DNA of 64,000 bases, taken from positions 2,380 through 66,379 of the forward strand of contig CAVOHX010000021.1 in the NCBI GenBank assembly GCA_963695825.1, written 5' to 3'. Of the stretch, positions 538-20,400 are shown piece by piece. The translations under genes were made by a program, and so were the position numbers. The notes under the pieces are model-generated. The model made no database searches. It was not told the DNA's origin and was given only the letters and a program-made list of their open reading frames with translations. Each line of letters starts with the position of its first letter. The first letter of the stretch is position 1. This DNA is from an uncultured Chloroflexia bacterium. Its GTDB lineage: Bacteria > Chloroflexota > Anaerolineae > Promineifilales > UBA4811.

Positions 538-2652
538 CTAGTCGGCCGTGACGACCGGCTCGAGCTCTCGCAGTTGCTCCAGCGGGATGTGGCAGTAGAT
601 GCGGTGATCGGCCGTGTTGTGCAGCGTCGGCGGGGTCTCTCGCTCGCAGATCAGGCCGCTATCGGGCGCCATCTCGCGGCGGGGGCAGCGGGTGTGAAAG
701 ACGCAGCCGCTCGGGCGGGTTGAGCGCGCTGGGCACGGTGCCCTCGAGCCGGATGTGCTTTTGCACCGCGGTGGGGTCGGGGATGGGCACGGCCGAGAGC
801 AGCGCCTCGGTGTAGGGGTGATAGGGGGGCGCATAGATCGCCTCGGCGGGTCCAAACTCCATGACGTGCCCCAGGTACATGACCGCCACGTAGTCGGAAA
901 AGAAGCGCACCACGCTCAGGTCGTGGGCGATGAACATCATGGTCGTCCCGTGCTGCTGCTGGATCTCGAGCAGCAGGTTGAGCACCGCCGCCTGCACCGA
1001 GACGTCGAGGGCCGAGACCGGCTCGTCGCAGAGGACCAGCTCCGGCCGGCTGGCAAAGGCGCGGGCGATGCCCACCCGCTGCTTTTCGCCGCCGCTCAAC
1101 TGGCGGGGCAGCCGGTAATAGTAGCTCTCGTCCAGCCGGACGGCGTGCAGCAGGCGCACCACCTCGTCGTACACCTCGCCGGACGGCACGGTCTTGAAGC
1201 GGCGCAGCGGCCGGGCGATCTGATGCCCCACGGTGTATGACGGGTTCATGGTCGAATCGGGGTTCTGAAAGACCATCTGCAGTTCCCGGACCAGCTCCAG
1301 CTCCCGCTTGGCGACCGGCACTCGAGATGTCGAATCCCAGGAACTCGACCTGCCCGCCAGAGGGGGATTCGAGGCCGACGATGGTCTTGGCGAGGGTGCT
1401 CTTGCCGCAGCCCGACTCGCCGACGACGCCCAGGGTTCTCCCCTTGGGGACCGCCAGACTGACGTCGTCCACCGCCCTGACGTACCTGCTTTTGCCCCAG
1501 CCCGACCAGGCTGAGGACGGATCTCGATTCCTGTTCGTAGTAGGTCTGGAGGTTCCGGACCTGCAGGATGGGCCCTTCCCCGGCCTCGGCCGGAGGAGTC
1601 AGGTCCACCGCCGATTCCTCCGCCGGCCGCCAGGTGGAGGCGTCGATCTCTTCCGCGTAAAAGCAGCGCGCCCGGTGGTCGGGCTCGACCTGACCGCAAT
1701 TGGGGCGCCTCGGTGCGGCAGCGATCGGTCGCATAGTCGCAGCGGGGCGAAAAGATGCAGGCGCCCGCCGGCCGGTCCATGGGAGCGGGCACCCGGCCGC
1801 GGATGGGATACAGGCGGCTGCTCTCCTTGGTGGTGCCCAGCTTGGGCACGCAGCGCATCAGGCCCTGGGTGTAGGGATGCAGCGGGCTTCCGGTAGATCG
1901 CCTCTACCGGACCGGTCTCGACGATCTCGCCGGCGTACATGACCGCCCACCTGGTTGCAGACCCGCGCCACCACCCCCAGGTCGTGGGTGATGTAGACGA
2001 TGGCGGTGTCGAAATCGCGCTTGCAGGTCCTCGATGAGGTCCAGGACGACCGCCTCGACGGTCACGTCGAGGGCGGTGGTCGGTTCGTCCATGATGAGCA
2101 GCGCCGGGTTGTTGAGCAGCGCCATGGCAATGACCACCCGCTGTTGCTGCCCGCCGGAGAGCTGGTGCGGGTAGCGGGTCATCACGGCCGCCGAATCGGG
2201 CATGTAGACCCGGTCCAGCATGGCGATCGACCGTTCCCAGGCCTCCGCCTTGGAGATGCCGCGGTGCACGGTCAGCACCTCGGAGAGTTGCTCGCCGATG
2301 GTGACCGACGGGTTGAGCGCCTGCATCGGGTCCTGGTAGACCATGGCGATCTGGTCGCCGCGCAGCTTGCGCAGCTCCTCCTGCGGAGCGGCCGACCAGT
2401 TCCTGCCCGCGGAACTGGATGCTGCCCGCCGACGATCTTGCCGTTGGCGCCCAGGAAATCGACGATGCCAAAGGCGACCGTCGATTTGCCGCAGCCGGAC
2501 TCGCCCACCAGGCCAAAGGTGGTGCCCTGATGGACCTGGAACGAGACCTCGCGCACCGCCTCGACGTCGCCGTAGCGGGTCTCGTACGAGATGGCGACCT
2601 CGTCGAGGTTGAGGACCGGCCCTGGGGTTTGCTTGCTCTCGGGCATGGTCAT
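538..2652 (-). CDS. fused oligopeptide/dipeptide ABC ATP-binding protein (OppD+OppF type), split by several frameshifts
   Basis: Two Walker A motifs (GESGCGKST), signatures LSGGQQQR and LSGGEKQR, Walker B MDEPTT and CDEPVS, HPYT motifs and a C-terminal GCVFHTRCP, spread over ORFs 2272-2652, 1904-2344, 659-1858, 651-1472 and 538-855. Confidence 0.85.
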
Positions 2653-2658
2653 CCTTCT

Positions 2659-3586
2659 CTACTGGTACCGCAGCGACTCTTCGCGCAGGCCATCCGCGAG
2701 GAGGTTAAAGCCGACCACCAGGGTGGCGATGGCGACCGAGGGCCAGAGCGCCGTCCAGATGTGCCCGGTCAGGATGAACGAGCGCCCCTTGGAGACCATG
2801 CTGCCCCAGTCGGGCGAGGGCGGGGGCAAGCCCAAACCCAGGAAGCCGAGCGTGCCCATGGCAAAGATGGCGTATCCGATGCGCAGCATGGCGTCCACGA
2901 TGATGGGGCCGCGGGCGTTGGGCAGTATCTCGAAGAACATGATGAACAGCGGCTTTTCGGCCCGCAACTCGGCCGCGCGGATATAGTCCCGGGTGCGGAT
3001 GTCGAGGGCCAGACTGCGCACCAGCCGGGCGATGCCGGGGGTGCCGACGATGGCGATGGCGAGCACCACGTTGACGGCCGACGCCCCGACGGCGGCGATG
3101 ATGATCATGTAGAGGAGGATGACCGGAAAGGCCATCATGGCGTCCAGGAGGCGCATGATCACCTCGTCGATCCACCCCATCATATAGCCGCCCACCAGGC
3201 CGAGGGTCGAGCCGAGCAACAGCCCCAGGGCGACCCCCCAGATGGCGATGCCGCCGGGCAGCCAGAGGGTTTCGTTGATGGGGAATATCACCAGCACGAC
3301 CCGGGCGCCGTGAGCCAGGCGGGACCAGAGGTCGCGGCCCAGGCTGTCGGTTCCCAGCAAATGCCCGGCCGAGGGGGGCAGATTCTGGGCCGTATAGTCC
3401 TGTTCGGTGGGCGTGTAGGGGGTGAGCAGGGGGGCAAACATGCCCACAAAGACCCAAAAGAGGACGATCACCAGGCCCACCACGGCCGTCTTGGAGGCCA
3501 GCAGGACCGAGAGGCTCATCCCGCAGGCGCTGCCGGCGCGATGGGCGCCGCGCTCGTGATGCCGTCGTCGATTCGGAGGTTGCCAT
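2659..3586 (-). CDS. peptide ABC permease (DppC/OppC type); probable frameshift near the 5' end
   Basis: [11 protein letters not shown] and LGFLGLG...DWG motifs with multiple TM segments. The N-terminus MATSEST...RRQRLRD lies in an adjacent frame. Confidence 0.88.
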
Positions 3587-3601
3587 GGTCGTCACTCGGC
3601 C

Positions 3602-5726
3602 CTACGAATACCGGATGCGCGGGTTGAGAAAGGTATAGATCACGTCCGCCAGCAACTGGGTGGAAACCGCCACGCCGACCAGGATGATGGCGCCGGCTTC
3701 GATGGCGTTGACGTCCTTGAAACGGGCCGAGTCGAGCAGGTAGCTGCCCAGCCCGGGATAGCCAAAGATCACCTCGACGATGACGATGCCGCCCAGCAGC
3801 CAGTTGACGTGCAGCATGATGACGGTGATGGGGGCCATCAGGGCGTTGCGGATGGCGTGCTGGGTGACGATCTGCAGCCGGGGCAACCCCTTGAGAAAGG
3901 CGGTGCGGATATAGGGCGCTTTCATGACGTCCGCCATGCTGGCCCGGGTGATGCGCAGCACGTACCCCAACTCGAGCAGGGTCAAGGTCAGCACCGGCAG
4001 GACGAGCATGTCCGGCCGGGTCCAGGGGGCGTCCTCGCCAAAGACGGTGGCGCCGGGCACCCATTTGAGCCAAAAGGCAAAGATGAGGATGAGGAAAATT
4101 CCGGTGGCAAACTCGGGCGAGACCGAAAAGATCATGCCCCCGATCGAGAGCACCCGGTCGATCAGCTTGCCCTCGTTGAGGCCGGCGATGAGCCCGAGGA
4201 CCAGGGCGACGGGCATGACGATGGCAAAGGCGATGCCCGCCAGGACCAGCGAATTGCGCAGGCGGGTAAAGAGCAGGGCGGAGACCGGCCGGCCGGTGCG
4301 GAGCGACACGCCCGGGTCGCCGCGCAGCAGCCCTTTTTGCAGCGGGACGTATTCCTGGGGTCCGCCGGCGACGGATACCCACTGGGTGGCGAGAAAGACC
4401 CACGCCTCTTTGCCGGACCCCTTTTCCCAGCGGACCGCGTGGTTTTGCTTGTCCACCCCCCAAAAGGTGCGCACGACGCGGGCGCGCCCGGCAGCGGAGC
4501 TGCGGGCGATGGTCGCGCCGTCCTCGCGCAAGAGCTCCGCGGCGACGGATAGCGATTCAGCGGCCGTCCCCAGCTCGTTCGCCTCCATCCCCCCGGCCGC
4601 GTCGTCCAGCGCCCCCGCCAGCTCGGGTTGAACCCGCTGCAGCGACTGGCGCATCCCCGCCAGGGCGGCCGACAGGACCGCCAGTTGGGCGCTGTCGAGC
4701 TGACCGGCAGCGACCCCGGGCCGACCATCCCTCCAGGGTTGACACCGCCTGGACGTAATCGCCGTCGCGCAGCGCCGCCAGCCAGCTTCCGAGCGAGAGG
4801 GAGAGGGTTTCGATCCCGGGCAACACGCCGCCCAAACTGTTTTCGGCGGCCGTTGGGTCCTCCCCCATCAGGTGGGCAGAGGCCTCGCGCACCTGGGGCG
4901 CCCCGGCGGCGCCCATGTCCTCCAACGACTTGGCGACGCGGTCCAGTTGCCGGGCCATGGCCTGGAGGTCGGCGACCCCCAGGTCGCCGGCGCCGGTCTC
5001 GGACAGGACCCGGTGGACGTCGGTCGCCAGCAGGATGGGCACCTTTTTGGCCGCCTCGTCGGCCGCGCTTTCCAGCGCGCTGCGGGCGCTCCCCGCCTCG
5101 GCCGCCATCATGGCGGTGAGGGAGGCTTCGGGGGTCGCCAGCGCGGCCGCCAGCGCCTCGGAGCTCATCTCCTGCGCTTCCGTCTCCCGCAGGACGACCA
5201 GGACGGCGTCGAGACGCTCGACGATCGCGTCGCGGTCGGCGTCGCTCAGTTGGGGGGAGTCGAGGACCGCCCCCCGGTGCGCCTCCAGGCGCTCGATCTC
5301 GGCCGTTGGGTCGGCGATCTGCCAGCGCTGGTTGTCGGTCTCTTTGACCTCGCTGCCGTCGGGGAGCAGGCGGGTCAGGGTCAGGTCCTCGCCCACCAGC
5401 TCCCAACGGCCGAGGCTACCGTCCTCCAGCTCGGCCCACCACTCCCAGAACCCCTCCTCGGTGGAGATGCGGGTCACGGGAAGGTTGACCCGCCGGGCGG
5501 CGAGCCAGTCAGAGCCGAGCAGCCAAAAGACGTAGCGCTGGAGCAGCGGCCGGTCGAGGCCGTTCTGGGCGAGAAAGGCGGCCTCCTGCTCGGGCATCAC
5601 CTGGTGGCCCAGCACGTTGCGGGCAATGTTCCCCGGCGCCGCTTCCGAGATGGCGAACACGGCGATCGAGACCAGAAACATGGTCAGGAGCATCAACACC
5701 AGGCGGCGCAGCAGGAATTTCGCCAT
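3602..5726 (-). CDS. peptide ABC permease (DppB/OppB type) with a very large extracytoplasmic insertion; frameshift ~4700
   Basis: N-terminus MAKFLLRRL...APGN...GLDRPLLQRY in ORF 4557-5726. C-terminal half LRGDPGVS...YIRTAFLKGL...NPRIRY in ORF 3602-4654. Confidence 0.85.
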
Positions 5727-5809: not shown

Positions 5810-7550
5810 TTAGGCCTTGAGCCAGACCTTTTCCAGTAGGGTGAATCCGGATGGGTGCACAGGGACGTCCATCACGTTGTTGCGGAATATGGTCCAGATG
5901 TTGTGCCACCAGGCGAGCCCGATAGAGCCGCGATCCATCTGGATCTGCTCCAGTTCGCAAAAGAGCTTGCGCCGCGCCTCGACGTCATAGGTGCCCGACG
6001 CCTGGGCCAACAGTTCGTCAAACTCGGGATCGACCCAATAGGACTCGTTCCAGGGTACCGGGTTGCCGTCGGCGTCGCCCGCGTAGGCGATGCCCAGCAT
6101 CTGGGTGCCCAGCGGGCGGTGCGCCCAGGAGGTGATGCCCACGTCCACCTGGTTCCAGACCTCCCAGTACTGGTCGTTGGGCATGGTGTCGAGGGTGATG
6201 TTGAACCCGGCCGGGGCGGCGTCCTCTTTGAGGATCTCGGCGTAGGAGACGATATCGGGCCAGCCGGTGCCCACGGCGATCGACAGGTCCAGCCCGTTCG
6301 GAAAGCCGGCTTCGGTCAGCAACGCCTTGGCCTTGTCCGGATCGTAGGCCGGGATCGGCTTTTCGCAGTACTCGGGGTGACCGGGGTAGACGTGGGCGTC
6401 GTGGCCCACCACCCCCTCGCCAAAGTAGGCGAGTTGGAGGATTTTTTCCCGGTCCTGGCAGAGCTTGAGCGCCATCCGGACCCGGTTGTCGGTCCAGGGC
6501 TCGGTGTCGGCCCGCATGCGCAGCACGCGGGTTCGCGAGCTGGCGACGCCGGGGACCGAGACGTTGGGGTCGTCCTTGAGCGCCAAATAGTGGTCCGGGC
6601 TGGCGGCCGAGCCGAGGTCGAGGAAATCGACCTCGCCCGCCTGAATGGCGGCGATCCAGGCCGACGCTTCCTCGCCCATGTCGATCCACTCGATGGCGTC
6701 CATGTAGGGCAGGGGTTGGCCGTCGGCGCCGTTGCGCCAATACCCCTCACGCTTTTTGAGCAGCACCCGCTCGCCCTCGCTGTAGGACTCGAGGGTGTAG
6801 GGACCGGGGCCGTGGGGGGCCTTTAAAAAGTCGCCTTCAAAGGTGCGGTGGTTCATGACCAGCGCCGCATAGCCGAACAGGTGCTCGGGGACGCCCAGCT
6901 CCGGCCGGCTCAGGTGCAAGGGTGACCGTGTGGTCGTCCACCCGCTCGATGTTCTCGGGGCTGAGGTAGCCGCCCACGACGCCCAACTGGGCCGAGGCGA
7001 CGTCCTCTTTGAGCCACTCGTTCAGGGTAAAGATGACGTCGTCGGCGTTGAAATCGTCGCCATTGTTGTGCTTGATCCCTTGACGAAGGTTGAGCTTCCA
7101 GGTCTGCAGGTCCTCGCTGGGCTCCCAGCTCTCCAACAGCTCGGGCTGGGTGACGTTGTTCTCGTCGGTCAGGGTCAGGAACTGGGTGACGAGCATCATC
7201 TGGTGGGTGGGGTTGGCCCAGGAGATCTGGGAGAGGTGGGCCAGCTTGTGCACGCGGCTGGCGACCTTGATGGTGCCTCCGCGCGTTGGACCGGCCGGGG
7301 CCGGCGTGGCGGTCGGGTCGGGCGCCTTGGTGGGGTCCGGGACCTTGGTGGGCTCGGGCGCTTTGGTGGGTTCGGGCGTCTCGGCCGTGCAGGAGGCCAA
7401 AAAGGCGCTGGCGCCGGCAACGGACGCGCCCAACAAGGTCGCGTGGCGCAGGAACTGGCGGCGGGTGACCCGGCCCTGCCGATAGAGATCCTTCAGTTCG
7501 GGGAGGTACGGATGGCCGTCCTCTCGTTTTTCACCTTTGATGATTTCCAT
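5810..7550 (-). CDS. ABC substrate-binding lipoprotein (family 5), Tat signal; frameshift ~6920
   Basis: MEIIKG...TRRQFLR twin-arginine signal, lipobox-like LASC, EPTKAP linker repeats, PELLESWE and GPGPY motifs. Joined from ORFs 6837-7721 and 5810-6919. Confidence 0.88.
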
Positions 7551-7751
7551 CGTTGTGCTTCTCCTCTTTGATTCAGATTCTTGAACGCCTGTGGACAGGC
7601 TAGACTTGAGGCGCCTCGCAGCGGGCGCCGGCGGAACTGTCAACGGGTCTCGATTTCCTTCTTGACTATCACCTCCTCGCTCGTGACGACAACGCTTTCC
7701 AATTGGCTGACGATTCATCAAACGGCCGGCGGACTGGTCCCTAAAACGGGT

Positions 7752-8450
7752 CTAGGCCGGCATGGCGGGGGGCAGGGCGATCTCGATCTGGCCCAGCGAC
7801 CCCCATTCGAGAGGGCGACTGACCGCGCTCAGGGCGCGCTGTTGGGCGCGGGCGACCAGGTCGCCGGCAATCTTGCCCGCGCGATCCGGGTCCCGCCCAC
7901 AGATGGCGTCCACCAGCAGGTGGTGCTCCTGGCGCATCGCCTCGGAAAGGTCCTCCAGGTCGTAGGTGAGAAAAAAGAAGCGGGCCAGTTCGTCCATCAG
8001 GCCGGAGAGCTGATCGACGACCCGCTGGTTGCCGGCCGCGACGGCGATGGCGCGGTGAAAGTCGGCGTTGAGGTTGATGCGCGGCAGGTAGCTCTCCTTG
8101 TCCTTGAACACGTAGGTGATGTCGGCGAGCCGGACCATCTCTTTCAGGTCGTGGTCCGAGCCGCGGGCGGCCGCCATGCGGGCGGCAAAGGATTCGAGCA
8201 GGTAGCGCATCTCGAACATCTCCTGGATGTCCGACAGGGTGATGGGGGTGATGACGTACCCCGACCGGGGGACGGGCTGGACGAGGTTCTCCAGGGCCAG
8301 GCGGTGCAGCGCGTCGCGGATCGGCGTGGTGCCGATCCCGTACCGGTCCGCCAGTTGGGATTGAACGACCTGTTGACCGGGTCGAAGGACGCAGGCGATA
8401 ATGTCGGCCCGGAGAAGCTGGTAGGCTCGTTCTGCTAGTAAAGGCGGCAT
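7752..8450 (-). CDS. GntR-family transcriptional regulator (FCD domain)
   Basis: LAERAYQLLRADII...LRPG...GTTPIRDAL winged HTH. C-terminal NADFH...EH motifs. Confidence 0.9.
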   Translation of the reverse strand: MPPLLAERAYQLLRADIIACVLRPGQQVVQSQLADRYGIGTTPIRDALHRLALENLVQPVPRSGYVITPITLSDIQEMFEMRYLLESFAARMAAARGSDHDLKEMVRLADITYVFKDKESYLPRINLNADFHRAIAVAAGNQRVVDQLSGLMDELARFFFLTYDLEDLSEAMRQEHHLLVDAICGRDPDRAGKIAGDLVARAQQRALSAVSRPLEWGSLGQIEIALPPAMPA

Positions 8451-8790: not shown

Positions 8791-9054
8791 TCAGCCTAAC
8801 GAGCCATAAACCCGCCGGTAAAGCCAACGACCGACGGAATATGTGATCACGAATTGGAAAAACGCCACTCCTACGCCAATCACAATACCTTTTGTACCAG
8901 AGTAACCCCAGATTGCGGTTAGGTCGACAAAGCTCCAATATCCTGCAACCAGAATCGCAAACCATTTCTCTGATAAAGAGTCTTTCTTCCTCCAATATGC
9001 CAAAAGCATAATCAGAAGAATCAGAACTACCAGATCGACAACAATTACCCACAT
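8791..9054 (-). CDS. small membrane protein (87 aa), probable orphan immunity protein
   Basis: About 3 hydrophobic segments, AT-rich, last gene of the Rhs cassette array. Confidence 0.55.
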   Translation of the reverse strand: MWVIVVDLVVLILLIMLLAYWRKKDSLSEKWFAILVAGYWSFVDLTAIWGYSGTKGIVIGVGVAFFQFVITYSVGRWLYRRVYGSLG

Positions 9055-9078: not shown

Positions 9079-9420
9079 CTACAAGATTCTAATCGAGCAA
9101 GATAGCTTTGCTTTCATCGCATGAGTGTTCTGCACCTTCTCGACGCGCCGGCCGCCAAAGGGGAGATAGCGCGCGCTGTCCACCAGCTCGTAGAGGTTGC
9201 CAAACTCGTGGGAGACAGCGGCAATGCTGCCCAGGTGGTCGGTGTGAAAGTAGTAGACCTCGTCGTCTTCGCCATCAACTTCGACCCGCATGACGATCCG
9301 TTGGCTACCCAGGAAAAAGTAGCTACGGGTGACGGTGCCCGTCACCTCCAGATGCGGGCCGGGGGTGGCGCTCCAGGTGTCGTCGGGGTGGAGGGTGAGC
9401 ACCCGGTTGCCATCCCTACC
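9079..9420 (-). pseudogene. Rhs core fragment without an identifiable toxin tip
   Basis: DGNRVLTLHPDDTWSATPGPHLEV...YYFHTDHLGS...RYLPFGG, then homology ends before the DPxG motif. Confidence 0.75.
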
Positions 9421-9458
9421 ACTACGGACGTTGTCGATCAATGTGTCGGCTCTGTCCA

Positions 9459-9920
9459 TCAGTCCTCGAGGCATGTCACAAGCTGCCCCTGTTGAGCCGC
9501 AGAATCCAATGCACAACAGACAGCGTGGTACCCTGCTATCTTGAAGGCCATTACGGACGAAAACCCCAGATGGAACAACAACTCGTGAACTTGCACCTTT
9601 ACCTGTATGACTGATCTGTCGAGATGTTCATTCAATGCCTCATTGGCCCCCCGGCTCACCCCGGTGAGGGCGTTCCGCAGGAGCGCACGTGTCATCTGTT
9701 CATCCAAGGAAATGGGTGCGCTAGTTTTGACGACAGGTCCCTGCAGGATGAGGAATCTTGCGTCGGAATGGAGGGTCACCATGGACGCGGGCGGCGTGGG
9801 GCCGGCAAGGGGCTCCAGTGTAAGAGACACCTTTGCATAGCCGGAAGGCATGGGCAATACATCGCGCTCGTACTCTCCAGCCACCGTAGAGATCACCGTG
9901 TAGCATCGCCGATTCTGCAT
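9459..9920 (-). CDS. stand-alone elongation factor G domain IV-like protein in immunity position
   Basis: GYAKVSLTLEPL...GVSRGANEAL...VIQVKVQVHELLFHLGFSSVMAFKIAG..AV aligns by eye with EF-G domain IV (GQYGHVKIKVEPL...AVQKGIEEAM...[31 protein letters not shown]). No GTPase or other EF-G domains are present. Confidence 0.75.
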   Translation of the reverse strand: MQNRRCYTVISTVAGEYERDVLPMPSGYAKVSLTLEPLAGPTPPASMVTLHSDARFLILQGPVVKTSAPISLDEQMTRALLRNALTGVSRGANEALNEHLDRSVIQVKVQVHELLFHLGFSSVMAFKIAGYHAVCCALDSAAQQGQLVTCLED

Positions 9921-9931
9921 GGGAACTCTCG

Positions 9932-10973
9932 TTAGCCTCCGCGCTGTTCGACCATCCTAAACCAGTAATCGCTGCCCAGAGTGTCGGGGAAGGCTCGTAT
10001 CATCTCAGTCGCGCCAAATCTCCCAAGGAGCCGTCAACCTCTGCATCTCCAATGCCAGTTGGTGCGCCCTACCAAGATCGACCCCGCCTGCAACGACCTG
10101 AGCTTCCAACAATTCGTGTGTCATCCAGCGCAGGTCATAAATGGTTGCTGGCAGTTCGCCGCCCGCTATCCGAGACATCCGGTTCAACATCGCCTGATTG
10201 TACGGGGCCCACTCATTGTTGATGGCGCCAATAGACCGAAGGTGTTGTTCAGCCTTGGCAATGTTCTGTGGGTTGATCAGGGCGTTGATCTCGTTGGACG
10301 GATCACCATCGCTCGAGAGGGCGTCAATTGCGCGGGTGCCCAGCTCACGTGTCGCAACGAGTTCATTTGTGCAATCCGAGTCGGCACACGCTGCCCCAAG
10401 CATAGCGGAGACGGTCGCTGCGAGCGCCTCAGCGCCGTCAACGACTAGTATGGATCCCACCGCCAGTGAGCTAGCGGCCACAGCAAGGAAACCAAGGGTT
10501 TCGCGAATCTGGCGCGGGTTCGGTCGTGTGTTTGGCGGCGACCAATAGGAGCGACGGCAATATCGACAGATATCCTGATCAGGGAACTTGTCGGGCGAAT
10601 CCACGATATGCCCGGATGGATCGGTGTGGCGAAGCGGGTTCCCCAGGCCGTATGCATATCTGTTTAGGGATTGAGGGTTCGCCGGATCGGGGACAATCGT
10701 ATCCGGCGACAGAAACCGGCCGATCGTCGGGTCCTGCCAACGGGCGCGCATGTCGAGGAGTTTTATGTCAAGCGCGTGGCGATGGTCGGTATAGCCCCGG
10801 TCCGTCAGGTCCTCATCCGGCTCGACGCGCATCCCTCCAAAGGGGAGGTACCGCGCGCTGTCCACCAGTTCGTGGGCGTTGCTATACTCGTGGGAGACGG
10901 CCGCGATGCTACCCAGGTGGTCGGTGTGAAAGTAGTAGACCTCGTCGTCTTCGCCATCGACCTCGACCCGCAT
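9932..10973 (-). CDS. Rhs core + C-terminal toxin C (HExxE...AH motif); probable frameshift ~10010
   Basis: HTDHLGS, RGYTDH, ARWQDP.IGRFLSPD and NPLRHTDPSGH (Rhs cleavage motif). Tip NQAMLNRM...WMTHELLEAQ...RAHQLAL. The ORF stops at 10005, but a shifted frame continues ATEMIRAFPDTLGSDYWFRMVEQRGG* to 9932. Confidence 0.75.
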
Positions 10974-12269
10974 GGCGACCCACTGGTCGCTCGTGAAACA
11001 GATGATGCTGCCTCGCCTGTGCATCGTTCGCTGCCCGATGACATTATTGCATGGAACGGCCAGGGGGTCAACCAGATAGCTCAAAGATTGGGATGAGGAA
11101 ACCGCGCATGCAGGCCGGCACCCAAACAACCCCTCGATTCTCAATCGACCACCAGGCCGTTCCACCGGTCAATACGATCGCGCCATAATGATGAAATACC
11201 CACCACAACAGGCCACTATTGCCAGACACACAACTGCAATCGCCAGGATCGCCTGGAAGAGCGCGGGTCTCGACTCGGGGACAGCGCGGTCGCTTCTCCG
11301 GCGGCCGCGCCACTCGGTGATGGCGGTGCGACAACTGACGACGATGGTTGTGCCACCAACCACAAAGACTGCAACGCCAAGTAGAATCAAGACAGAAAAC
11401 TCAATGCCATGCCCTCCTAGATCAGGCAGGTCGAGAACGTTATTCGTCCCCGTCCAGGACCACCACCGACCAGCAGCCATGAGCACTAGTCCAATGAGAA
11501 TGGCAACAACATAAGAGTAGAACTGATGTCAGCGTGTTCCTTCTCACTGCCACCTCGACGGCATAAGATCAACGCCACGGCGGGTTGCTGGCTGACCATT
11601 GAACATCTCGGCGAACCAACGCAGGAGGAAGTGCCAAATGTAATACTGGCTCTCGTCAACCATGGCCATGTCCCACGGATCATTGGGATCAAACTCGTCA
11701 GGGTCAAGCAATTCCAGAAGCGAGTGTCCCCCATGGCCCCAATCAATCGCATGCCCCAGGCGGTCGTCCAAGGAGAACGGATTCAACGCCTCCAGGTCCG
11801 CCCCCACGGCGGAGAAACGATCATCCAATAACCACTGTTCGAGCCACTCCAAGCCCTGAGTAAGCATGCTGCCGATGAATCCCTGGCCGAAATGCGCGAA
11901 ATAGTCCTGGACGGCGTGAAGGTTGTAGCCAAACCGCCAGGGGTTGAGTCTGTCGGCGTTGATTGATTCCTCTATTGTCTCCCGCCCCTCCCGGTGGCAG
12001 TTCCAATGATTGGTTCCGGGAATCGGCGATAGGTTTGTGAGATTCGTCAGATCATCTGCCCACTTGTTGCCCCCAGCGATTTCGTGCGCCAGATCCGTTG
12101 CCAGTGCCGCGGCTACGTCCTCGGCCAAACCGTACATGCCCACACCGATGTTCAGTGCGCTCTGGTAAACCCACTGATAGGTCTTGTAGTAGTGCACTTC
12201 TATGTGGTAGTGCCCGCTGGGATCTTGCAGCGCTGTCGGCCGATTGTTGACATAACTCATCCGATTCAG
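10965..12269. repeat. ~1.3 kb near-identical duplication, copy 1 (copy 2 at ~14868-16171)
   Basis: Offset 3902-3903 bp. Covers toxin tip A, immunity A and the spacer. A few substitutions and one indel separate the copies. Confidence 0.92.
11169..11553 (-). CDS. membrane immunity protein A, copy 1 (one extra base near 11513 shifts the frame)
   Basis: Near-identical to the intact 127-aa copy at 15072-15455. GTG start overlaps the toxin stop; three hydrophobic segments. Confidence 0.7.
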
Positions 12270-12851
12270 CGACTGGGGATCGGTGTAGTCGGGGACGATC
12301 GTATCCGGCGACAGAAACCGGCCGATCGTGGGGTCCTGCCAACGCGCCCGCATGTCGATGAGTTTGATGTCGAGCGCTTGTCTGTGGTCGGTATAGCCCC
12401 GGTCCGTCAGGTCCTCATCCGGCTCGACGCGTAACCCGCCAAAGGGGAGATACCGCGCGCTGTCAATCAGCGCGTAGAGGTTGTCCACTTCCTGGGACAC
12501 GGCCGCGATGCTGCCCAGGTGGTCGGTGTGGAAATAGTAGACCCGGTCCTCTTCCTGTTCGCCGACGGGTTTGACCCGCATGGCGACCCGCTGGCGACCG
12601 AGGAGATAGTAGCTGCGGATGACGGTGTCCGTCACCTCGAGATGGGGGCCGGGGGTGGCGCTCCAGGTGTCGTCGGGGTAGAGGGTCAGCACCCGGTTTC
12701 CATCCCCATCGTACAGCATCTCGGTAACGGCGCCGCTGATGAGGTCTGTCACCCGCGCCAGCCGGTTCTCGACGTCCCACTCTTGCCGGAAGGCGTCCTC
12801 GTCGTCGCTACGCTGGTATGGTACGCAGTCGCTACGCAAGATGCGCGACAT
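11544..12851 (-). CDS. Rhs core + C-terminal toxin A (Zn-dependent phospholipase C/Het-C-like), copy 1
   Basis: WDVENRL, YDGDGNRV, HTDHLGS and RPTALQDPSGH. Tip with H...H, WAD, HW and GYNLHAVQDYFAH (HxxQDxxxH). Rhs homology begins ~12806. Confidence 0.78.
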   Translation of the reverse strand: MSRILRSDCVPYQRSDDEDAFRQEWDVENRLARVTDLISGAVTEMLYDGDGNRVLTLYPDDTWSATPGPHLEVTDTVIRSYYLLGRQRVAMRVKPVGEQEEDRVYYFHTDHLGSIAAVSQEVDNLYALIDSARYLPFGGLRVEPDEDLTDRGYTDHRQALDIKLIDMRARWQDPTIGRFLSPDTIVPDYTDPQSLNRMSYVNNRPTALQDPSGHYHIEVHYYKTYQWVYQSALNIGVGMYGLAEDVAAALATDLAHEIAGGNKWADDLTNLTNLSPIPGTNHWNCHREGRETIEESINADRLNPWRFGYNLHAVQDYFAHFGQGFIGSMLTQGLEWLEQWLLDDRFSAVGADLEALNPFSLDDRLGHAIDWGHGGHSLLELLDPDEFDPNDPWDMAMVDESQYYIWHFLLRWFAEMFNGQPATRRGVDLMPSRWQ

Positions 12852-13863
12852 CCAGTTTGTACCCTTTTATCCCTTCGGCCCGCAGGAGCTGCCGTAATCG
12901 CGGTGAGATGAGCAACATCGGCGTGGGCACGAGCAGCCCGCGGCGAGTGCCGACCATGTCCTTGGTCATGACTACATCGCTGCCGTCCCAGGCGCCGCGC
13001 GAAACCCACAGCTCCGATAGTTGGTTGAGGCCACTGACGTGGCCGAACGGACAGCGATGGTGGCCATCCACATCCTCGTCAAACGGATCAATACCGAACC
13101 GGGTCGGCGCGACCGTCGGCACAGCGGGTGATGCGACCACGAGTTGGTACCAGGCCGGGATGGGCCTCGGCCGGCGGCGGTCGCGCTGTTCCAGACGCTC
13201 CGCATGCTCCAGGTCCGCCCGATCTGCCAGCTCGCGCTGCTCGGGACGGTTGAGCCACACCCAGAAATCCCAGGTGGGGTGTGGAACGCCGGTCTCAGCC
13301 GCCAACCTCAAAATCTGCCGGCCGGATGGCGTCTTGGAGAGATCAACCGGATCGTCCTGGTAGCGAGCCTTGTGTCGCACGCGACGCAACTCGAAACCGG
13401 TCATTCGCGCATCGACCAGCAGCTCGGCGAGGCGCTGCGATACGATCCATTCATCGGCAATGGTGCGGGCAATGTGCTTGCTCTTTGGTGCTCTGCGCAA
13501 GTCCAGGATCAATTCCGATAGCTGCGTACGACCGGCGCCGCAAGCCGGACAGGCCGTGGTTTCGTCGTAAATTGTACCGCATTCCTCGCCGGTAGGCTCA
13601 AAGACCGCAGTAATCTCAAGGCCGAAAAGCTCCGCGGCTTCAAGTTCTTTGTGGGTGTAACGACGTTTGACCTCCCACCCGTAAAAGAACCTGGTCCCCT
13701 CTTCCTGGAGTCGCCGGTCCAACTCCCCAACCCATAGATAAAGCGGGTCGTCCACGGCAACTTCCAGGGCCCGGACAGTCTCACCAAGTACCCGTCCAGC
13801 ATCGGCCGCCAGGAAACGGCTCGCGTCCTCCTCTGGGATTCTGAACTCGACGCTCTCTCTCAT
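12832..13863 (-). CDS. putative immunity protein B (343 aa, Cys motifs)
   Basis: ATG overlaps the toxin B stop (TAATG at 13865-13861). Soluble protein with EECGT..CPACGAG and CPFGH motifs. Confidence 0.72.
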   Translation of the reverse strand: MRESVEFRIPEEDASRFLAADAGRVLGETVRALEVAVDDPLYLWVGELDRRLQEEGTRFFYGWEVKRRYTHKELEAAELFGLEITAVFEPTGEECGTIYDETTACPACGAGRTQLSELILDLRRAPKSKHIARTIADEWIVSQRLAELLVDARMTGFELRRVRHKARYQDDPVDLSKTPSGRQILRLAAETGVPHPTWDFWVWLNRPEQRELADRADLEHAERLEQRDRRRPRPIPAWYQLVVASPAVPTVAPTRFGIDPFDEDVDGHHRCPFGHVSGLNQLSELWVSRGAWDGSDVVMTKDMVGTRRGLLVPTPMLLISPRLRQLLRAEGIKGYKLDVAHLA

Positions 13864-14876
13864 TATCGCCTCGCCGAGTTCGGAGGAATCGGGTATTTCC
13901 CGTACACCTGCATCATGATGTCTCGGAGCACGGCCGGGCTCGGTTTTCCCTGTCCGTATGCCCACAGCTTCCGGAACTCGTTGGTGATGTACTGATGATA
14001 GGCGACAGGGATCCTGTATTGTGGCCCTGTGGCAGCTCCGCCGAGATATCTGGGCGTGTAGTGGTGCCATTCCATCCTGCCGGCCTTGCTGGGATATCGT
14101 TGCGCCGCCTGAGCAATCAGCTCTGCGACCGGTACTGTAGCTGCGAGGGCCACGGCTGGATTGGCGTCTGGATCATCTCCGACGCCATGCCGAAGGCGAG
14201 CCTCATAGAGGTAGCTCGCGGTATCGGGATCCAGGCCGCTCAACACTAGCTGTTCCGCAGTTATGTGAAAGATGCTGTACTGCGAAAACACTTCTAGATC
14301 CGCAACCTCCGGACTGGCAAACCACGCTTCGGGGTCTGCAAAAAGCTCAATGAAGTGCCACGGGTCATTGAGAAAGTGTATGAAGGCCTGCTCCGCGCCA
14401 AAACGATCAGAGTCAGACACACAACCGCTGTAAACAGGGTCCCACAGCGGCGAAACATCAGGCTGTTTCTCGCTATCGCAACCGGAGTCGGGATAGGCGC
14501 AGGAAAGCGCGTGTCCACTTGGGTCAGTGAAGCCCAGAGGCCGATTATTAACATAACTCAGCCGATTGAGGGACTGGGGATCGGTGTAATCGGGGATGAT
14601 CGTGTCCGGTGACAGGAACCGGCCGATCGCCGGGTCCTGCCAACGCGCCCGCATGTCGATGAGTTTTATGTCGAGCGCCTGGCGGTGGTCAGTATAACCG
14701 CGGTCGGTGAGGTCCTCATCCGGCTCGACGCGGAGCCCTCCAAAGGGGAGATAGCGCGCGCTGTCCACCAGCTCGTGGGCGTTGCCAAACTCGTGGGACA
14801 CGGCCGCGATGCTACCCAGGTGGTCGGTGTGAAAGTAGTAGACCTCATCGTCTTCGCCATCGGCCGCGACCCGCAT
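13863..14876 (-). CDS. Rhs core + C-terminal toxin B (HNH/His-Me-finger-like nuclease)
   Basis: HTDHLGS and RPLGFTDPSGH. Tip EWHHYTPRYLGG...YRIPVAYHQYITN resembles the HH-x2-P...GG...H pattern of HNH-type toxins. Confidence 0.75.
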   Translation of the reverse strand: MRVAADGEDDEVYYFHTDHLGSIAAVSHEFGNAHELVDSARYLPFGGLRVEPDEDLTDRGYTDHRQALDIKLIDMRARWQDPAIGRFLSPDTIIPDYTDPQSLNRLSYVNNRPLGFTDPSGHALSCAYPDSGCDSEKQPDVSPLWDPVYSGCVSDSDRFGAEQAFIHFLNDPWHFIELFADPEAWFASPEVADLEVFSQYSIFHITAEQLVLSGLDPDTASYLYEARLRHGVGDDPDANPAVALAATVPVAELIAQAAQRYPSKAGRMEWHHYTPRYLGGAATGPQYRIPVAYHQYITNEFRKLWAYGQGKPSPAVLRDIMMQVYGKYPIPPNSARR

Positions 14877-16171
14877 GGCGACCCACTGGTCGCTCGTGAA
14901 ACAGATGATGCTGCCTCGCCTGTGCATCGTTCGCTGCCCGATGACATTATTGCATGGAACGGCCAGGGGGTCAACCAGATAGCTCAAAGATTGGGATGAG
15001 GAAACCGCGCATGCAGGCCGGCACCCAAACAACCCCTCGATTCTCAATCGACCACCAGGCCGTTCCACCGGTCAATGCGATCGCGCCATAATGATGAAAT
15101 ACCCACCACAACAGGCCACTATTGCCAGACACACAACTGCAATCGCCAGGATCGCCTGGAAGAGCGCGGGTCTCGACTCGGGGACAGCGGGGTCGCTTCT
15201 CCGGCGGCCGCGCCACTCGGTGATGGCGGTGCGACAACTCACGACGATGGTTGTGCCACCAACCACAAAGACTGCAACGCCAAGTAGAATCAAGACAGAA
15301 AACTCAATGCCATGCCCTCCTAGATCAGGCAGGTCGAGAACGTTATTCGTCCCCGTCCAGGACCACCACCCACCAGCAGCCATGAGCACTAGTCCAATGA
15401 GAATGGCAACAACATAGAGTAGAACTGATGTCAGCGTGTTCCTTCTCACTGCCACCTCGACGGCATAAGATCAACGCCACGGCGGGTTGCTGGCTGACCA
15501 TTGAACATCTCGGCGAACCAACGCAGGAGGAAGTGCCAAATGTAATACTGGCTCTCGTCAACCATGGCCATGTCCCACGGATCATTGGGATCAAACTCGT
15601 CAGGGTCAAGCAATTCCAGAAGCGAGTGTCCCCCATGGCCCCATTCAATCGCATGCCCCAGGCGGTCGTCCAAGGAGAACGGATTCAACGCCTCCAGGTC
15701 CGCCCCCACGGCGGAGAAACGATCATCCAATAACCACTGTTCGAGCCACTCCAAGCCCTGAGTAAGCATGCTGCCGATGAATCCCTGGCCGAAATGCGCG
15801 AAATAGTCCTGGACGGCGTGAAGGTTGTAGCCAAACCGCCAGGGGTTGAGTCTGTCGGCGTTGATTGATTCCTCTATTGTCTCCCGCCCCTCCCGGTGGC
15901 AGTTCCAATGATTGGTTCCGGGAATCGGCGATAGGTTTGTGAGATTCGTCAGATCATCTGCCCACTTGTTGCCCCCAGCGATTTCGTGCGCCAGATCCGT
16001 TGCCAGTGCCGCGGCTACGTCCTCGGCCAAACCGTACATGCCCACACCGATGTTCAGTGCGCTCTGGTAAACCCACTGATAGGTCTTGTAGTAGTGCACT
16101 TCTATGTGGTAGTGCCCGCTGGGATCTTGCAGCGCTGTCGGCCGATTGTTGACATAACTCATCCGATTCAG
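14868..16171. repeat. ~1.3 kb near-identical duplication, copy 2
   Basis: Matches 10965-12269. Confidence 0.92.
15072..15455 (-). CDS. membrane immunity protein A, copy 2 (127 aa)
   Basis: Three TM segments. Start overlaps the toxin A stop at 15446. Confidence 0.75.
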   Translation of the reverse strand: MAVRRNTLTSVLLYVVAILIGLVLMAAGGWWSWTGTNNVLDLPDLGGHGIEFSVLILLGVAVFVVGGTTIVVSCRTAITEWRGRRRSDPAVPESRPALFQAILAIAVVCLAIVACCGGYFIIMARSH

Positions 16172-16735
16172 AGACTGGGGATCGGTGTAGTTGGGGATGA
16201 TCGTATCCGGCGACAAAAACCGGCCGATCGCCGGGTCCTGCCAACGCGCCCGCATGTCGATGAGTTTTATGTCAAGCGCATGGCGATGGTCAGTGTAACC
16301 GCGGTCGGTGAGGTCCTCATCCGGCTCGACGCGCATCCCTCCAAAGGGTAGGTAGCGACTGCTGTCCACCAGTTCGCGCAGTCCAGTGCGGGACTGCACT
16401 GGGTAGGTGTTGCCAAACTCGTGGGAGACGGCCGCGATGCTGCCCAGGTGGTCGGTGTGGAAATAGTAGACCTCGTCGCTTCCTCGCCGGCGGCTTCCAC
16501 CCGCATGGCGACCCGTTGGCTACCCAGGAAATAGTAGCTCCTCGTGACCGTGCCGGTCACCTCGAGGTGCGGGCCGGGGGTGGCGCTCCAGGTGTCGTCG
16601 GGGTAGAGGGTGAGCACGCGGTTTCCATCCCCATCGTACACCATCTCGGTGACGGCGCCGCTGATGACGTGCCTGTGACGCGGATGAGCCGGTTCTCGAC
16701 GTCCCACTCTTGCCGGAAGGCGTCCTCGTCGGCCG
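15446..16735 (-). CDS. Rhs core + C-terminal toxin A, copy 2; upstream core disrupted by frameshifts and a short insertion
   Basis: ORF 15446-16399 has the same tip as 11544-12851. Core pieces DEDAFRQEWDVENRL and YDGDGNRVLTLYPDD lie in ORFs 16557-16850 and 16267-16827. Confidence 0.75.
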
Positions 16736-17112
16736 AGAGGATGAGCTCGTCGAGCATCAGGTCGCCCTGCACCTGCACCCGCCTCGGGGACCCCAGAGTT
16801 TGAGCAGAGATCGTTGCCTCCTTGCACAAGCTAAAAGAGAAAACGCCCATCGGCGACGACGCCGCGCTGTCCCAGCACGCCGCCCTGCCCCGGGCCGCGT
16901 GCCGTTGAGAACAGTATACAACGAAGATGGGGGCGGGGTCAAGAGGGGTTTGTGCGGGGACGTATTGGCATCCGGCCGCGTGCTGCTCCGATCCGGCTGG
17001 CTGACAATAAAGCCCTTGTCATGAACGCCGATCACCCCCACCGGCTCGGCCGCACACCAGCGCCGGATTGTTATCCGGCGCAAGCGACTTGGGGCGGCGC
17101 GAGCACCCGCTT

Positions 17113-17246: not shown

Positions 17247-17453
17247 ATGCGCACCATTCGCACGTTCATCGTTCGCCTGCTGGTGGACACGGACGAACCC
17301 GACGCGTTGCGCGGGGTCGTCCGCTGCATCGCCAGCGACAGCGACCACCCCTTTACCGACCATCGATCCCTGTTGGAGGTTTTGCGCACGGTCAGCCAAC
17401 CCGACCCGGCTGACCCCGATTCTCGGATTGCCCTGACTAGAGGAGGAGCGTGA
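17247..17453 (+). CDS. small hypothetical protein (68 aa) preceding the giant surface protein
   Basis: RBS GGAGGAGG. MRTIRTFIVRLL...LRGVVRCI...HPF...LLEVL resembles small Chloroflexi ORFs seen ahead of large secreted proteins. Its stop overlaps the next start. Confidence 0.65.
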   Translation: MRTIRTFIVRLLVDTDEPDALRGVVRCIASDSDHPFTDHRSLLEVLRTVSQPDPADPDSRIALTRGGA

Positions 17454-20400
17454 TGTCGAGCAAACAGTATCCCCATAAAGGTCGCGTGGGCCTGGTCGCC
17501 AGCGTTGCGCTGTCGGCCGTGGCGCTGCTGGCGTTGTGCGTCCTGCTGAGCGACGCCGCCCCGACCCCGGCGGCCGACGCCGGACTCTGGATCACGGCCG
17601 CCTCGCCCACCGGCGGCGCCGGCGCGCCGTTCGACGCGGTCGAGATCGTCTTTAGCGAGTCGGTCATGACCGGCACTTTTACCCTGGACGACGTGACCGT
17701 CGGCGGGCCGGGCGGACCCATCACCCCGGCCGGTCTGACCCAACTGGCGGCCGATCGCTACCTGCTCGACCTGGCAGGCCAAACGGGCTTGAATACCTAC
17801 TCGCTCAGCGTCGGGACTGACGTCCTCGACCTGGACGGCGGCGCGCTGGACCAGGACCACGATGGCGTGCCGGGCGAGTTCGAGGACCGCTACGTCGCGG
17901 CGCTCTTTGGCGCCGGGGCGGTCATCACCGGGACCCAGACCACCTACGAGGGACAGCACCTGGTGATCCATGGCGACGATTCGACCATCGACGGCAGCCA
18001 CGCGTTTGGGAGCCTCGCCCTCCTGGGCGGCGCGGCGCTGGCCCACTCGACCACCACGGCGGATACCGAGTACCGGCTGGAGCTGGTCCTCACCGACACG
18101 TTGCACATCGACGCGGCGTCGCGGATCGACGTCAGCGGCCTGGGGTACCGGCCCGGCCGCACCCTGGGCAACACGACCATCGGGGCGGCGGTCGAGTATG
18201 CCGGAGGCAGTTACGGTGGGTACGGCGCGGTCGTCGGCTCGGGAGCCACCAACGCCGCCTATGGCGATTACCGTGACCCGGACGAACTGGGGTCGGGCGG
18301 CGCCGTCAGCCTTGGTAGCACGTCGGCCGGGGGTGGATTGGTGCGCATCACCGCCGGCGACGCGGTGGTCGAGGGCCAGATTCTGGCTAACGCCGGCCTG
18401 CTCACCGCCTGGGGGCGGACCGGCAGCGGGGGCGGGGTGCTGCTCCGCGTCGGCGCCCTGAGCGGAAATGGTTTCATCGCCGCCGATGGCGGCGAATGTC
18501 CCACCAGTGCGTTTGCCAACAGCCAGGGGGGCGGGGGCGGCCGGGTGGCGGTCTATTACGACGCCCTGGCGGGATTTGATCTGACCCACGTGACCGCCTG
18601 GGGCGGCCGCGGCGACGCCACCGACGCGGTGGGCGGCGCCGGGTCGGTCTACCTGAAGCGAAACGGCGGCGAGGGCCGCCTGGTCATCCGCAACCGGGGG
18701 GTGTCGGCCGACGCCACCACCCCCCTCGGCGTGGCGGCCGATTCGGTGTTCGTGGTGGACCACCTAATCATCAGCGGCACCAACGCGGTGGTCGTGCCCG
18801 AGCACGACCTGCTCATCCGGGCGGAGAACGTCACCGTGCAGTACAGTGCCACCCTGAGCCACAAACCGGCGACCGCCGACGACGAGTATGCGCTCCGGCT
18901 GGCGGTCACCGACACGCTGCACGTCGCCGCGACCGGCCGGATTGACGTGACGGCCAAGGGGTACCTGCCCGGCCGCACGCTGGGCAACACGCCGACCGGC
19001 GCCTCCTATTCGCTCGCTGGCGGCAGCTATGGCGGATACGGCGCGGTGGGCAGCTCTTCTGGCACCAACGCGGTCTATGGCGACTATCGGAACCCGGACG
19101 AGCTGGGGTCCGGGTCCGGCTCGGAGGCCTGGTACAGCGCATCGACCGGCGGCGGGCTGGTGCGGATCACGGCCGGGACCGCGGCCGTGGACGGTGAGAT
19201 CGTCGCCGACGGCAGCGCGGGTCCGGCCGAGCGCGGGATGCGCGGCAGCGGCGGCGGGGTGCTCCTCGACGTGGGGACGCTCTCGGGCGCTGGCTCGATC
19301 TCGGCCCACGGCGGCGACATCCTCACCAACTATGGCTGGGGCGGGGGCGGGGGCCGGGTGGCGGTCTATTACGACACGCTGGCGGGTTTCGACCTCTCCC
19401 GCGTCACCGCTCGCGGCGGTCACGACAACGGCACGGTGGAGCCGGCCGCCGCCGGGACGGTCTACCTGAAGCAAAACGGCGGCGAGGGGCGGCTGGTGAT
19501 TCAGAACCAGGGCCCGGCGACCACCGTCTACACGCCGTTGGGGCTTCCCGCGGATACGACCTTCCTCGTCGATCACCTGGTGGTCAGCGGCGCCAACTCC
19601 ATCGCTGCGCCCGAGCACAACCTGCCGGTCGAAGCCCAGAACGTGACCGTGGAATTGGGCGGCACCCTCACCCACCGACCGGCGACGGCCGACGACGCGT
19701 TCTCGCTGCGGATGACGATCAGCGACACGCTGCACGTCGCCGCGACCGGCCGGATTGACGTGACGGCCAAGGGGTACCTGCCCGGCCGCACGCTGGGCAA
19801 CACGCCGACTGGCGCCGCCTATTCAAACGCAGGCGGCAGTTATGGCGGTTATGGGCCGGTGGTCGGCTCTTCGGCCGGCACCAATGCGGTCTATGGCGAC
19901 TATCGGAACCCGGACGAGCTGGGGTCCGGGTCCGGCTCGGAGGCCTGGTACAGCGGTTCGGCCGGCGGCGGGCTGGTGCGGATCGCGGCCGGGGCCGCGG
20001 TCCTGGACGGTGAGATCATCGCCGACGGCAGCGCGGGTCCGGCCGAGCGCGGGATGCGGGGCAGCGGCGGCGGGGTGCTGCTCGACGTGGGCCAACTCTC
20101 CGGCGCCGGCTCGGTCTCGGCCAACGGCGGCGACCTCCTCGCCAGCTATGGCTGGGGCGGCGGCGGCGGCCGGGTGGCGGTCTATTACGACGCGCTCGCG
20201 GGTTTCGACCTCTCCCGCGTCACCGCCCGCGGCGGACACGACACCGGCACGGTTGAGCCGGCCGCCGCCGGGACGGTCTACCTGAAGCAGAACGGCGGCG
20301 AGGGGCGATTGGTGATCGAGAACCAGGGCCCGGCGACCACCGTCTACACGCCGCTGGGGCTTCCCGCGGATACGACCTTCCTCGTCGATCACCTGGTGGT

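Follow-up and report, generated by a model that had tools for sequence, protein, structure and literature searches.

A stand-alone homologue of elongation factor G domain IV in the immunity slot of an orphan Rhs toxin module

Why would a single domain of a translation factor be encoded directly behind a toxin gene? The question is raised by a 64,000-nt stretch of DNA from an uncultured Chloroflexia bacterium (assembly GCA_963695825.1, contig CAVOHX010000021.1, positions 2,380 to 66,379; the whole stretch is hereafter referred to as the window). In this window, an open reading frame (ORF) located at 9459-9920 on the minus strand, with an ATG start and 153 codons, follows the toxin tip of an Rhs module and encodes a homologue of domain IV of elongation factor G (EF-G), designated P0001. 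The original prediction, made from the DNA letters and their translations and in which the strand was absent, had recognised this relationship and had proposed that P0001 is an immunity protein imitating the partner of the toxin; as a whole, that interpretation is partly supported by the analyses presented here. Because of the position of the gene, the conserved pairing of its homologues with related toxin tips and the co-divergence of the two partners, an immunity role is the best reading, and P0001 is most likely (with a probability of ca. 0.8) the cognate immunity protein of the Rhs toxin tip encoded next to it, to which it would bind.

A free-standing EF-G domain IV homologue

The ORF encoding P0001 is placed in the immunity slot because it is the sole ORF between the tip encoded at 10005-11165 and a terminal Rhs fragment at 9079-9516. 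Its location directly downstream of an Rhs tip, as first proposed, is borne out by the ORF found upstream on the same strand, which contains an Rhs-associated core (TIGR03696, E 1.7e-15, residues 106-186) followed by ca. 190 aa of tip sequence. The analogy that had been drawn with the immunity genes of other cassettes in the array also stands, the neighbouring cassettes sharing the same layout of a tip followed by a small ORF. No signal peptide was evident by eye in P0001.

Taken alone, P0001 matches the Pfam family EFG_IV (PF03764) over residues 78-141 with an E-value of 0.014 and a score of 15.6 bits, which is below the gathering cut-off of 24 bits. EF-G accounts for 16 of the 18 rows obtained with phmmer against PDB (E<=10; best E 0.018), and the EF-G encoded in the same genome shares 25% identity with P0001 over 53 residues (BLASTP, E 0.099). 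Three alignments with EF-G had initially been made by eye and all were reproduced: GVSRGANEAL and FHLGFSSVMAFKIAG align to positions 539-594 of the Thermus EF-G in the phmmer search of PDB, while GYAKVSLTLEP corresponds, with a one-residue gap, to the GQ(Y/F)G(H)V..EP strand of EF-G in a profile-profile alignment. The relationship of P0001 to EF-G becomes significant when an alignment of its family is used rather than the single sequence.

This family was assembled by an exhaustive HMMER scan of 1.84 billion representative proteins, which recovered 15 representatives at E<=1e-3, P0001 included. All 15 are 124-164 aa long and are therefore stand-alone proteins; instead of the five-domain GTPase architecture of EF-G, P0001 has 153 aa and a single-domain model. 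Cluster members of 10 representatives (up to 40 examined for each) are all derived from metagenomes and, among their source names, two read 'translation elongation factor EF-G', the others being 'hypothetical protein' or nameless. EFG_IV is matched by 13 of the 15 family members at E<=1 (best 2.3e-8), and 43 of the 44 rows obtained with the family profile against PDB (E<=10; best 4.5e-6) correspond to EF-G, mitochondrial EF-G2 or Tet proteins, with TetM and TetQ among the weak PDB or Foldseek matches. When the 15-member family was aligned by hhalign to 24 EF-G domain IV sequences (taken from 29 ORFs cut from EF-G loci of the phylum, five of which were dropped as wrong-frame), a probability of 97.8% and an E-value of 7.5e-13 were obtained over 108 columns. 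The alignment spans positions 11-143 of the query and 7-118 of the 118 template positions, that is, the entire domain.

In 400 other genomes sampled from the phylum, the family profile matches the EF-G gene in 345 cases, at profile positions 66-142 (a tally that takes in five unpublished genomes, G227, G038, G344, G145 and G173), with no match better than E 4.5e-9; among the matches listed, only the C-terminal half of the profile is involved, within frames of EF-G size. A 236-aa frame of a related genome, G091, that matches EFG_IV was considered as a stand-alone domain and rejected, since it is part of an EF-G gene that a frame change has interrupted. At this locus (L055, 5340-7368, plus strand), EF-G is divided within domain IV into overlapping frames of 519 and 194 aa by a frame change or an assembly error.

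In the genome carrying P0001, no second family copy was detected with the family profile, the only other weak EFG_IV match being EF-G itself. A word-index protein search with P0001 returned one relative, and none of eight matches on viral contigs to a pattern derived from the alignment of one subgroup (the Asp subgroup, see below) was confirmed. In the Atlas, a cluster of 85 hypothetical proteins of ca. 132 aa, mostly from Actinomycetota, is found near P0001 in feature space, and 16% of these proteins carry EFG_IV; further stand-alone proteins resembling domain IV may exist beyond the family. The P0001 family itself is best explained as a rare group of proteins of ca. 150 aa that descended from EF-G domain IV with the loss of all other EF-G domains.

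The predicted fold points in the same direction. For the AlphaFold2 model of P0001 (predicted local distance difference test, pLDDT, of 89.1; predicted template modelling score, pTM, of 0.86), all 50 matches listed by Foldseek (best E 2.3e-8) and all 50 listed by VIA-align are EF-G-family chains. In VIA-align, residues 1-153 of the model superimpose on residues 478-604 of the Staphylococcus aureus EF-G (8p2f_E) with a Z-score of 15.1 and a root-mean-square deviation of 2.4 Å over 122 residues. Sequence identity to EF-G in the structural alignments is 17-26%. Family profile, hhalign and fold agree in describing P0001 as a homologue of domain IV over its whole length that lacks the G domain and domains II, III and V, as had been claimed, and the comparison by profile and by Foldseek with EF-G domain IV that had been suggested as a check gave this same answer.

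The loops at the tip of the domain are remodelled. Loop I of EF-G, Q-T-G-G-x-G-Q-Y/F-G-H, is aligned by hhalign with D-x-x-P-x-P-S-G-Y-A-K in the family, one residue shorter; the QTGG loop had been described as replaced, and a Pro-rich D..P.PSG segment indeed occupies its place, in which the P-S-G-Y/F-A block is the best-conserved motif of the family. The claim that the tip-loop His is retained holds for P0001 (H117, in loop II) and for its own subgroup (6/6) and does not extend to the other subgroup, in which this position is an Asp (8/8). The combination of tip-loop motifs seen in EF-G, Q.GG.GQ(Y/F)GH in loop I together with His in loop II, is not found across the family. Compared with EF-G, the family also has an extra segment of ca. 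25 residues (ca. 48-75); the mean pLDDT at residues 61-70 is 57, the lowest in the model. Finally, the language-model features of P0001 are equally close to Fae and to EFG_IV clusters of the Atlas, Fae being a protein that presumably belongs to the S5 domain 2-like fold class.

Pairing with a helical toxin tip

The neighbourhood of other family members was surveyed by scanning metagenomes and genomes for the motif E-Y-E-x-[DN]-x4-P-S-G-[YF]-A, expressed as a degenerate DNA pattern; ca. five of the 15 representatives do not fit this pattern, so the survey is incomplete. It returned 22 loci (12 metagenome and 10 genome), of which three, all from metagenomes (L040, L038 and L037), contain true family members according to hmmsearch. 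At each of the three, Rhs_assc_core was detected in the same-strand ORF directly upstream (E 1.1e-22, 1.1e-18 and 1.9e-21), together with a tip homologous to that of the window. The linkage of stand-alone EFG_IV proteins to HExxE tips, which had been put forward as a way to check the prediction, is in this manner found at 3/3 further loci.

In an alignment of the four tips, identity to the L040 tip (first row) is 38-58%. A protein search with this alignment, which found four proteins, provided two additional tips, P0026 and P0027, also located behind Rhs cores, and all six distinct tips are preceded by such a core. A family protein follows the Rhs tip in all four loci for which context is available, with 7-21 nt between the toxin stop and the downstream ATG. 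Among the six pairs that can be formed from these four loci, pairwise identity is 30-58% for the tips and 27-39% for the downstream proteins, and the closest pair of tips corresponds to the closest pair of immunity proteins.

The tip domain, located in the window at 10008-10460 (minus strand) on the basis of the four-tip alignment, is ca. 150 aa long and contains the invariant motifs P-Y-N..M..R, Y-D..W..H-E-L-x-E, A-H and W-x-x-W. The AlphaFold2 model of the L040 homologue (pLDDT 88.1) is entirely helical with no beta strand. In this model, one predicted helix carries the H, E and E of HELxE and the next carries the invariant H, which is that of A-H and occurs 13 residues past the second Glu of HELxE. 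This HELxE...H spacing resembles what we take to be the spacing of zincin metal sites. Comparison with zincin-like metallopeptidases opposes HELxE to HExxH and gave no peptidase family match, with fold matches at Z of 5.6 or less. The tip is present as a single copy in the genome, and a word-index search with the window tip returned only itself.

No family or model matching the tip was found in Pfam (E<=10), NCBIfam, PADLOC or a PDB profile search, and Foldseek gave no match at E<=1e-3 in PDB and BFVD. Against 48,161 chains (VIA), Z did not exceed 5.6, which the notes of the tool class as noise for helical models, and a second VIA pass reached a maximum of 4.8; the Atlas gave weak leads only (0.91-0.92). 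Assignments of the tip to HEPN (Z 4.2-5.3), to the C-lobe of aminoglycoside kinases or to hemerythrin were rejected as resting on noise-level rows.

The tips are strongly acidic, with an isoelectric point (pI) of 4.05-4.59 and a net charge of -10 to -22. The pI is 5.0-8.8 in the immunity family and 6.1-9.0 in EF-G domain IV, which is neutral to basic, and the charge of the family is similar to that of EF-G domain IV. Indirectly, the acidity of the tips is easier to reconcile with a target made of protein than with RNA. A hydrophobic Gly/Ala-rich stretch precedes the helical domain in the window and L040 tips; together with an immunity protein devoid of signal peptide, it would fit a toxin target located in the cytoplasm.

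If P0001 acts as the immunity protein of this tip, it would be made in the cytoplasm and would neutralise the HELxE-motif tip by direct one-to-one binding. The contact would probably involve the remodelled tip of domain IV, where P-x-P-S-G-Y/F-A replaces loop I of EF-G.

Several observations weigh against assigning this role to P0001. First, the tip gene of the window shifts reading frame ca. 27 codons ahead of its natural end (region 9935-10033), the ORF stopping at ...PWEIWRD. Three-frame translation locates the displaced last ca. 26 codons in another frame at 9935-10015 (minus strand), and this tail (P0028) shares 50% identity with the final 24 residues of the L040 tip (E 5e-7); its frame reaches the natural stop 11 nt before the ATG of the immunity ORF, which is intact. 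The frame change may reflect either genuine decay of the gene or a mistake in the assembly. Since the module at 10005-11165 has, in addition to this frame change near its 3' end, neither a YD shell nor a plausible start of its own, it appears to be a decaying orphan, and the toxin-immunity pair of the window may itself be inactive. Second, no full-length Rhs (YD shell and delivery domain) was found in the assembly, which is 57% complete. Third, the genomic context covers four loci, the other 11 family representatives being on short metagenome contigs. As regards the first point, an intact immunity gene next to a decaying toxin is as expected if immunity against the toxins of neighbours is still under selection.

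Two of the metagenome loci have further features. The L037 locus also has an array organisation, with an HNH endonuclease ORF (912-1385, plus strand, E 1.2e-11) upstream; after the EF-G-like gene, at 3139-4762 (plus strand), come another Rhs core, whose tip is different, and a 230-aa ORF downstream of it. In L040, a homologous tip occurs at 6510-8435 (minus strand) in an apparently complete short protein composed of an N-terminal hydrophobic anchor (by eye), a middle domain with no assigned family and the last part of an Rhs core; genes for an M23 peptidase and a TolB-like propeller are found upstream.

What the toxin tip may recognise

Whether the ancestry of P0001 says anything about the target of the toxin depends on how domain IV came to be used. 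It could have been recruited for its fold (S5 domain 2-like), as a binding scaffold, and its origin would then carry no information on the target; this has slightly less than an even chance of being correct. It would account for the low identity to EF-G in the structural alignments, for the insertion and remodelled loops that set the family apart, for language-model features lying as close to Fae as to EFG_IV clusters and for the tip-loop His not being conserved. It is less easily reconciled with a whole-domain match that is specific to EF-G-family chains and does not extend to other members of the fold class, as seen in 50/50 listed matches with each structural method and in 43/44 PDB rows.

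A refinement of the immunity reading that links P0001 to the target, close to what was originally predicted, is a more tentative proposal. EF-G domain IV would be the natural partner of the tip, and the immunity protein a captured copy that competes with EF-G. The latter could be a substrate, whose tip loops would be cleaved or modified by a HELxE...H site requiring a metal, or else a carrier into the ribosomal A site, and the change of a Gly-rich loop I into a rigid Pro-rich loop would allow the toxin to be bound without turnover. Such a decoy is suggested by the homology of the immunity protein to the whole of domain IV and by changes that are concentrated at the tip, where QTGGxGQ has become D..P.PSG, the best-conserved motif of the family. 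The charge pattern is also in its favour, with acidic tips facing a neutral-to-basic EF-G domain IV and a family of similar charge to EF-G, and the placement of H, E, E and H on two successive predicted helices would be compatible with a metal site, the likeness to zincins being presumed. A precedent for the involvement of an elongation factor is provided by SRLase1, an RNase toxin that requires EF-Tu according to a preprint (10.64898/2026.09.18.752725).

Other observations argue against a decoy. The tip has no Pfam, PDB sequence or fold match, so no activity is indicated; its motif is HExxE and not the HExxH of zincins, and its model contains no beta strand. The tip-loop His is an Asp in all eight members of the other subgroup, and P0001 is only 25% identical to the host EF-G, over 53 residues. 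To our knowledge, moreover, immunity proteins usually bear no relation to the target of the toxin. Were the decoy reading correct, the tip would represent a new enzyme family partnering the tip of EF-G domain IV, and producers would be guarded by a loop-hardened copy of the target, a scenario that we regard as possible and rather doubtful.

It is improbable that the tip is an RNase with tRNA, mRNA or the 16S rRNA decoding site as its substrate and that it is blocked by a domain IV-like protein imitating RNA. Domain IV of EF-G mimics the structure of the anticodon arm and its fold is kept in P0001, but toxins that bind nucleic acids are not usually as strongly acidic as these tips (pI 4.05-4.59), the immunity family shows no marked acidity (pI 5.0-8.8), and no nuclease family or fold match was obtained for the tip, HEPN-like chains remaining at noise level. 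Least probable of all is a role outside immunity, as the remnant of an EF-G paralogue or as a helper or ribosome-protecting factor acting on the ribosome, which would recall the protection of ribosomes by TetM and TetO via their domain IV loops and the presence of TetM and TetQ among the weak matches, but which is at odds with conserved starts, stops and lengths, with the occurrence of the family after an Rhs tip in 4/4 loci, with the lack of a G domain for ribosome binding and with a genome in which there is no second family copy and the other weak EFG_IV match is EF-G itself.

The Rhs array and related systems

The toxin module next to P0001 (10005-11165, minus strand) is an orphan Rhs C-terminal module composed of a short Rhs repeat remnant, an Rhs-associated core and the toxin tip. 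A genome search located its core at 10608-10850 on the minus strand (12987-13229 on the contig; E 3.0e-16), ending in ...TDPSGH. On the other side of the immunity ORF, the truncated Rhs repeat fragment at 9079-9516 (minus strand), recognised from its translation (...YYFHTDHLGSIAAV...) and from a weak match to Pfam RHS (E 0.017), overlaps the 3' end of the immunity ORF. Past this fragment, an 87-aa ORF (8791-9054, minus strand), whose product by eye resembles a hydrophobic membrane protein, could be what is left of an immunity gene.

Three further modules with an Rhs core and a tip belong to the same orphan array (11169-16827) and are encoded on the minus strand by ORFs at 11544-12851, 13863-15068 and 15446-16399; Rhs_assc_core (TIGR03696, NCBIfam) was detected in the first two (E 1.7e-13 and 6.4e-14, respectively). 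Their immunity slots are occupied by small or medium ORFs at 11169-11486, 12832-13863 and 15072-15455, also on the minus strand. The genome search detected four Rhs cores in the whole assembly, all of them in this array. The G+C content of the array stretch (ca. 8-17 kb) is 56-63%, compared to 64-72% on either side, and because it is lower than that of both flanks it suggests that the array was horizontally acquired.

Within the array, the cassettes at 11169-12851 and 15072-16399 (both on the minus strand) are nearly identical: each comprises a tip with a weak match to Zn-dependent phospholipase C (E 0.074) and, after it, a small ORF (105 or 127 aa) that is hydrophobic and membrane-protein-like by eye, and they look like a duplicated tip-immunity pair. 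A third type of cassette occurs at 12832-15068 (minus strand), in which the tip at 13863-15068 has no family match and is followed by a long ORF with an internal ATG that overlaps the tip stop and would give a product of ca. 343 aa with no family. Adjoining the array on the opposite strand, a 1291-aa ORF (17450-21325, plus strand), rich in Gly, Ala and Thr and with several long internal repeats, sits where a full-length Rhs might be expected.

In its layout the P0001 cassette is an ordinary Rhs tip-immunity module, similar to other Rhs or polymorphic-toxin cassettes in having a core that ends in a DPxGH-like motif, a variable tip and a small ORF a few nt downstream, in tandem within a low-GC island. 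What is new is the pair itself, an undescribed tip family together with a protein homologous to one domain of an essential translation factor: unlike in those cassettes, the tip has no Pfam, PDB sequence or fold match, and EFG_IV is the sole Pfam match of the immunity protein. With EF-G domain IV, P0001 shares the G.(Y/F).(V).L..EP strand, the G...G helix and the (H).V.S(S/T)..AF..A element; it differs in standing alone, in the replacement of loop I, in its ca. 25 extra residues and in being encoded in a toxin cassette and not in a translation operon.

Other systems offer partial parallels. ImmD, the tRNA-mimicking immunity protein of colicin D, illustrates the concept of an immunity protein that imitates a substrate to block an active site; it is no homologue of a translation factor, whereas P0001 is a true homologue of a host domain and the tip encountered here is acidic, helical and unlike an RNase. 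TetM and TetO, which are derived from EF-G and protect the ribosome, and FusB, which binds EF-G, likewise confer protection against a translation inhibitor in a manner involving EF-G domain IV. TetM and TetO, however, retain the full set of five domains and have the ribosome as their site of action, FusB has no homology to EF-G, and neither system is a toxin-immunity pair. Elongation factors are also targets or cofactors of conflict toxins, as for SRLase1, for diphtheria toxin, which targets the tip of eEF2 domain IV, and for the Lit protease, which cleaves EF-Tu; in these cases there is no immunity protein derived from the factor. A full-text literature search revealed no EF-G-like immunity protein, although supplementary tables, which are outside such a search, might list one, and no mention of an EF-G-like immunity family was found when Zhang et al. 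2012 was searched by term over its first 300,000 characters (of 357,715).

For most tips of polymorphic toxins the target is not known, and it is seldom that an immunity protein hints at one. An immunity protein that is recognisable as a homologue of an EF-G domain provides a directly testable hypothesis in this respect, since it hints that the toxin recognises EF-G. If P0001 is indeed a decoy, target-derived decoys would be added to the routes by which immunity proteins originate, following a logic like that of the integrated decoys of plant immune receptors and of the self-resistance target copies in antibiotic gene clusters; the toxin would represent a new way to inhibit translocation, and a small protein binding a translation-directed toxin would become available as a tool. 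If it is not, the tip and P0001 would still constitute a new and rare toxin-immunity family pair, in which a domain of an essential gene has been recruited in an unusual manner into a conflict system.

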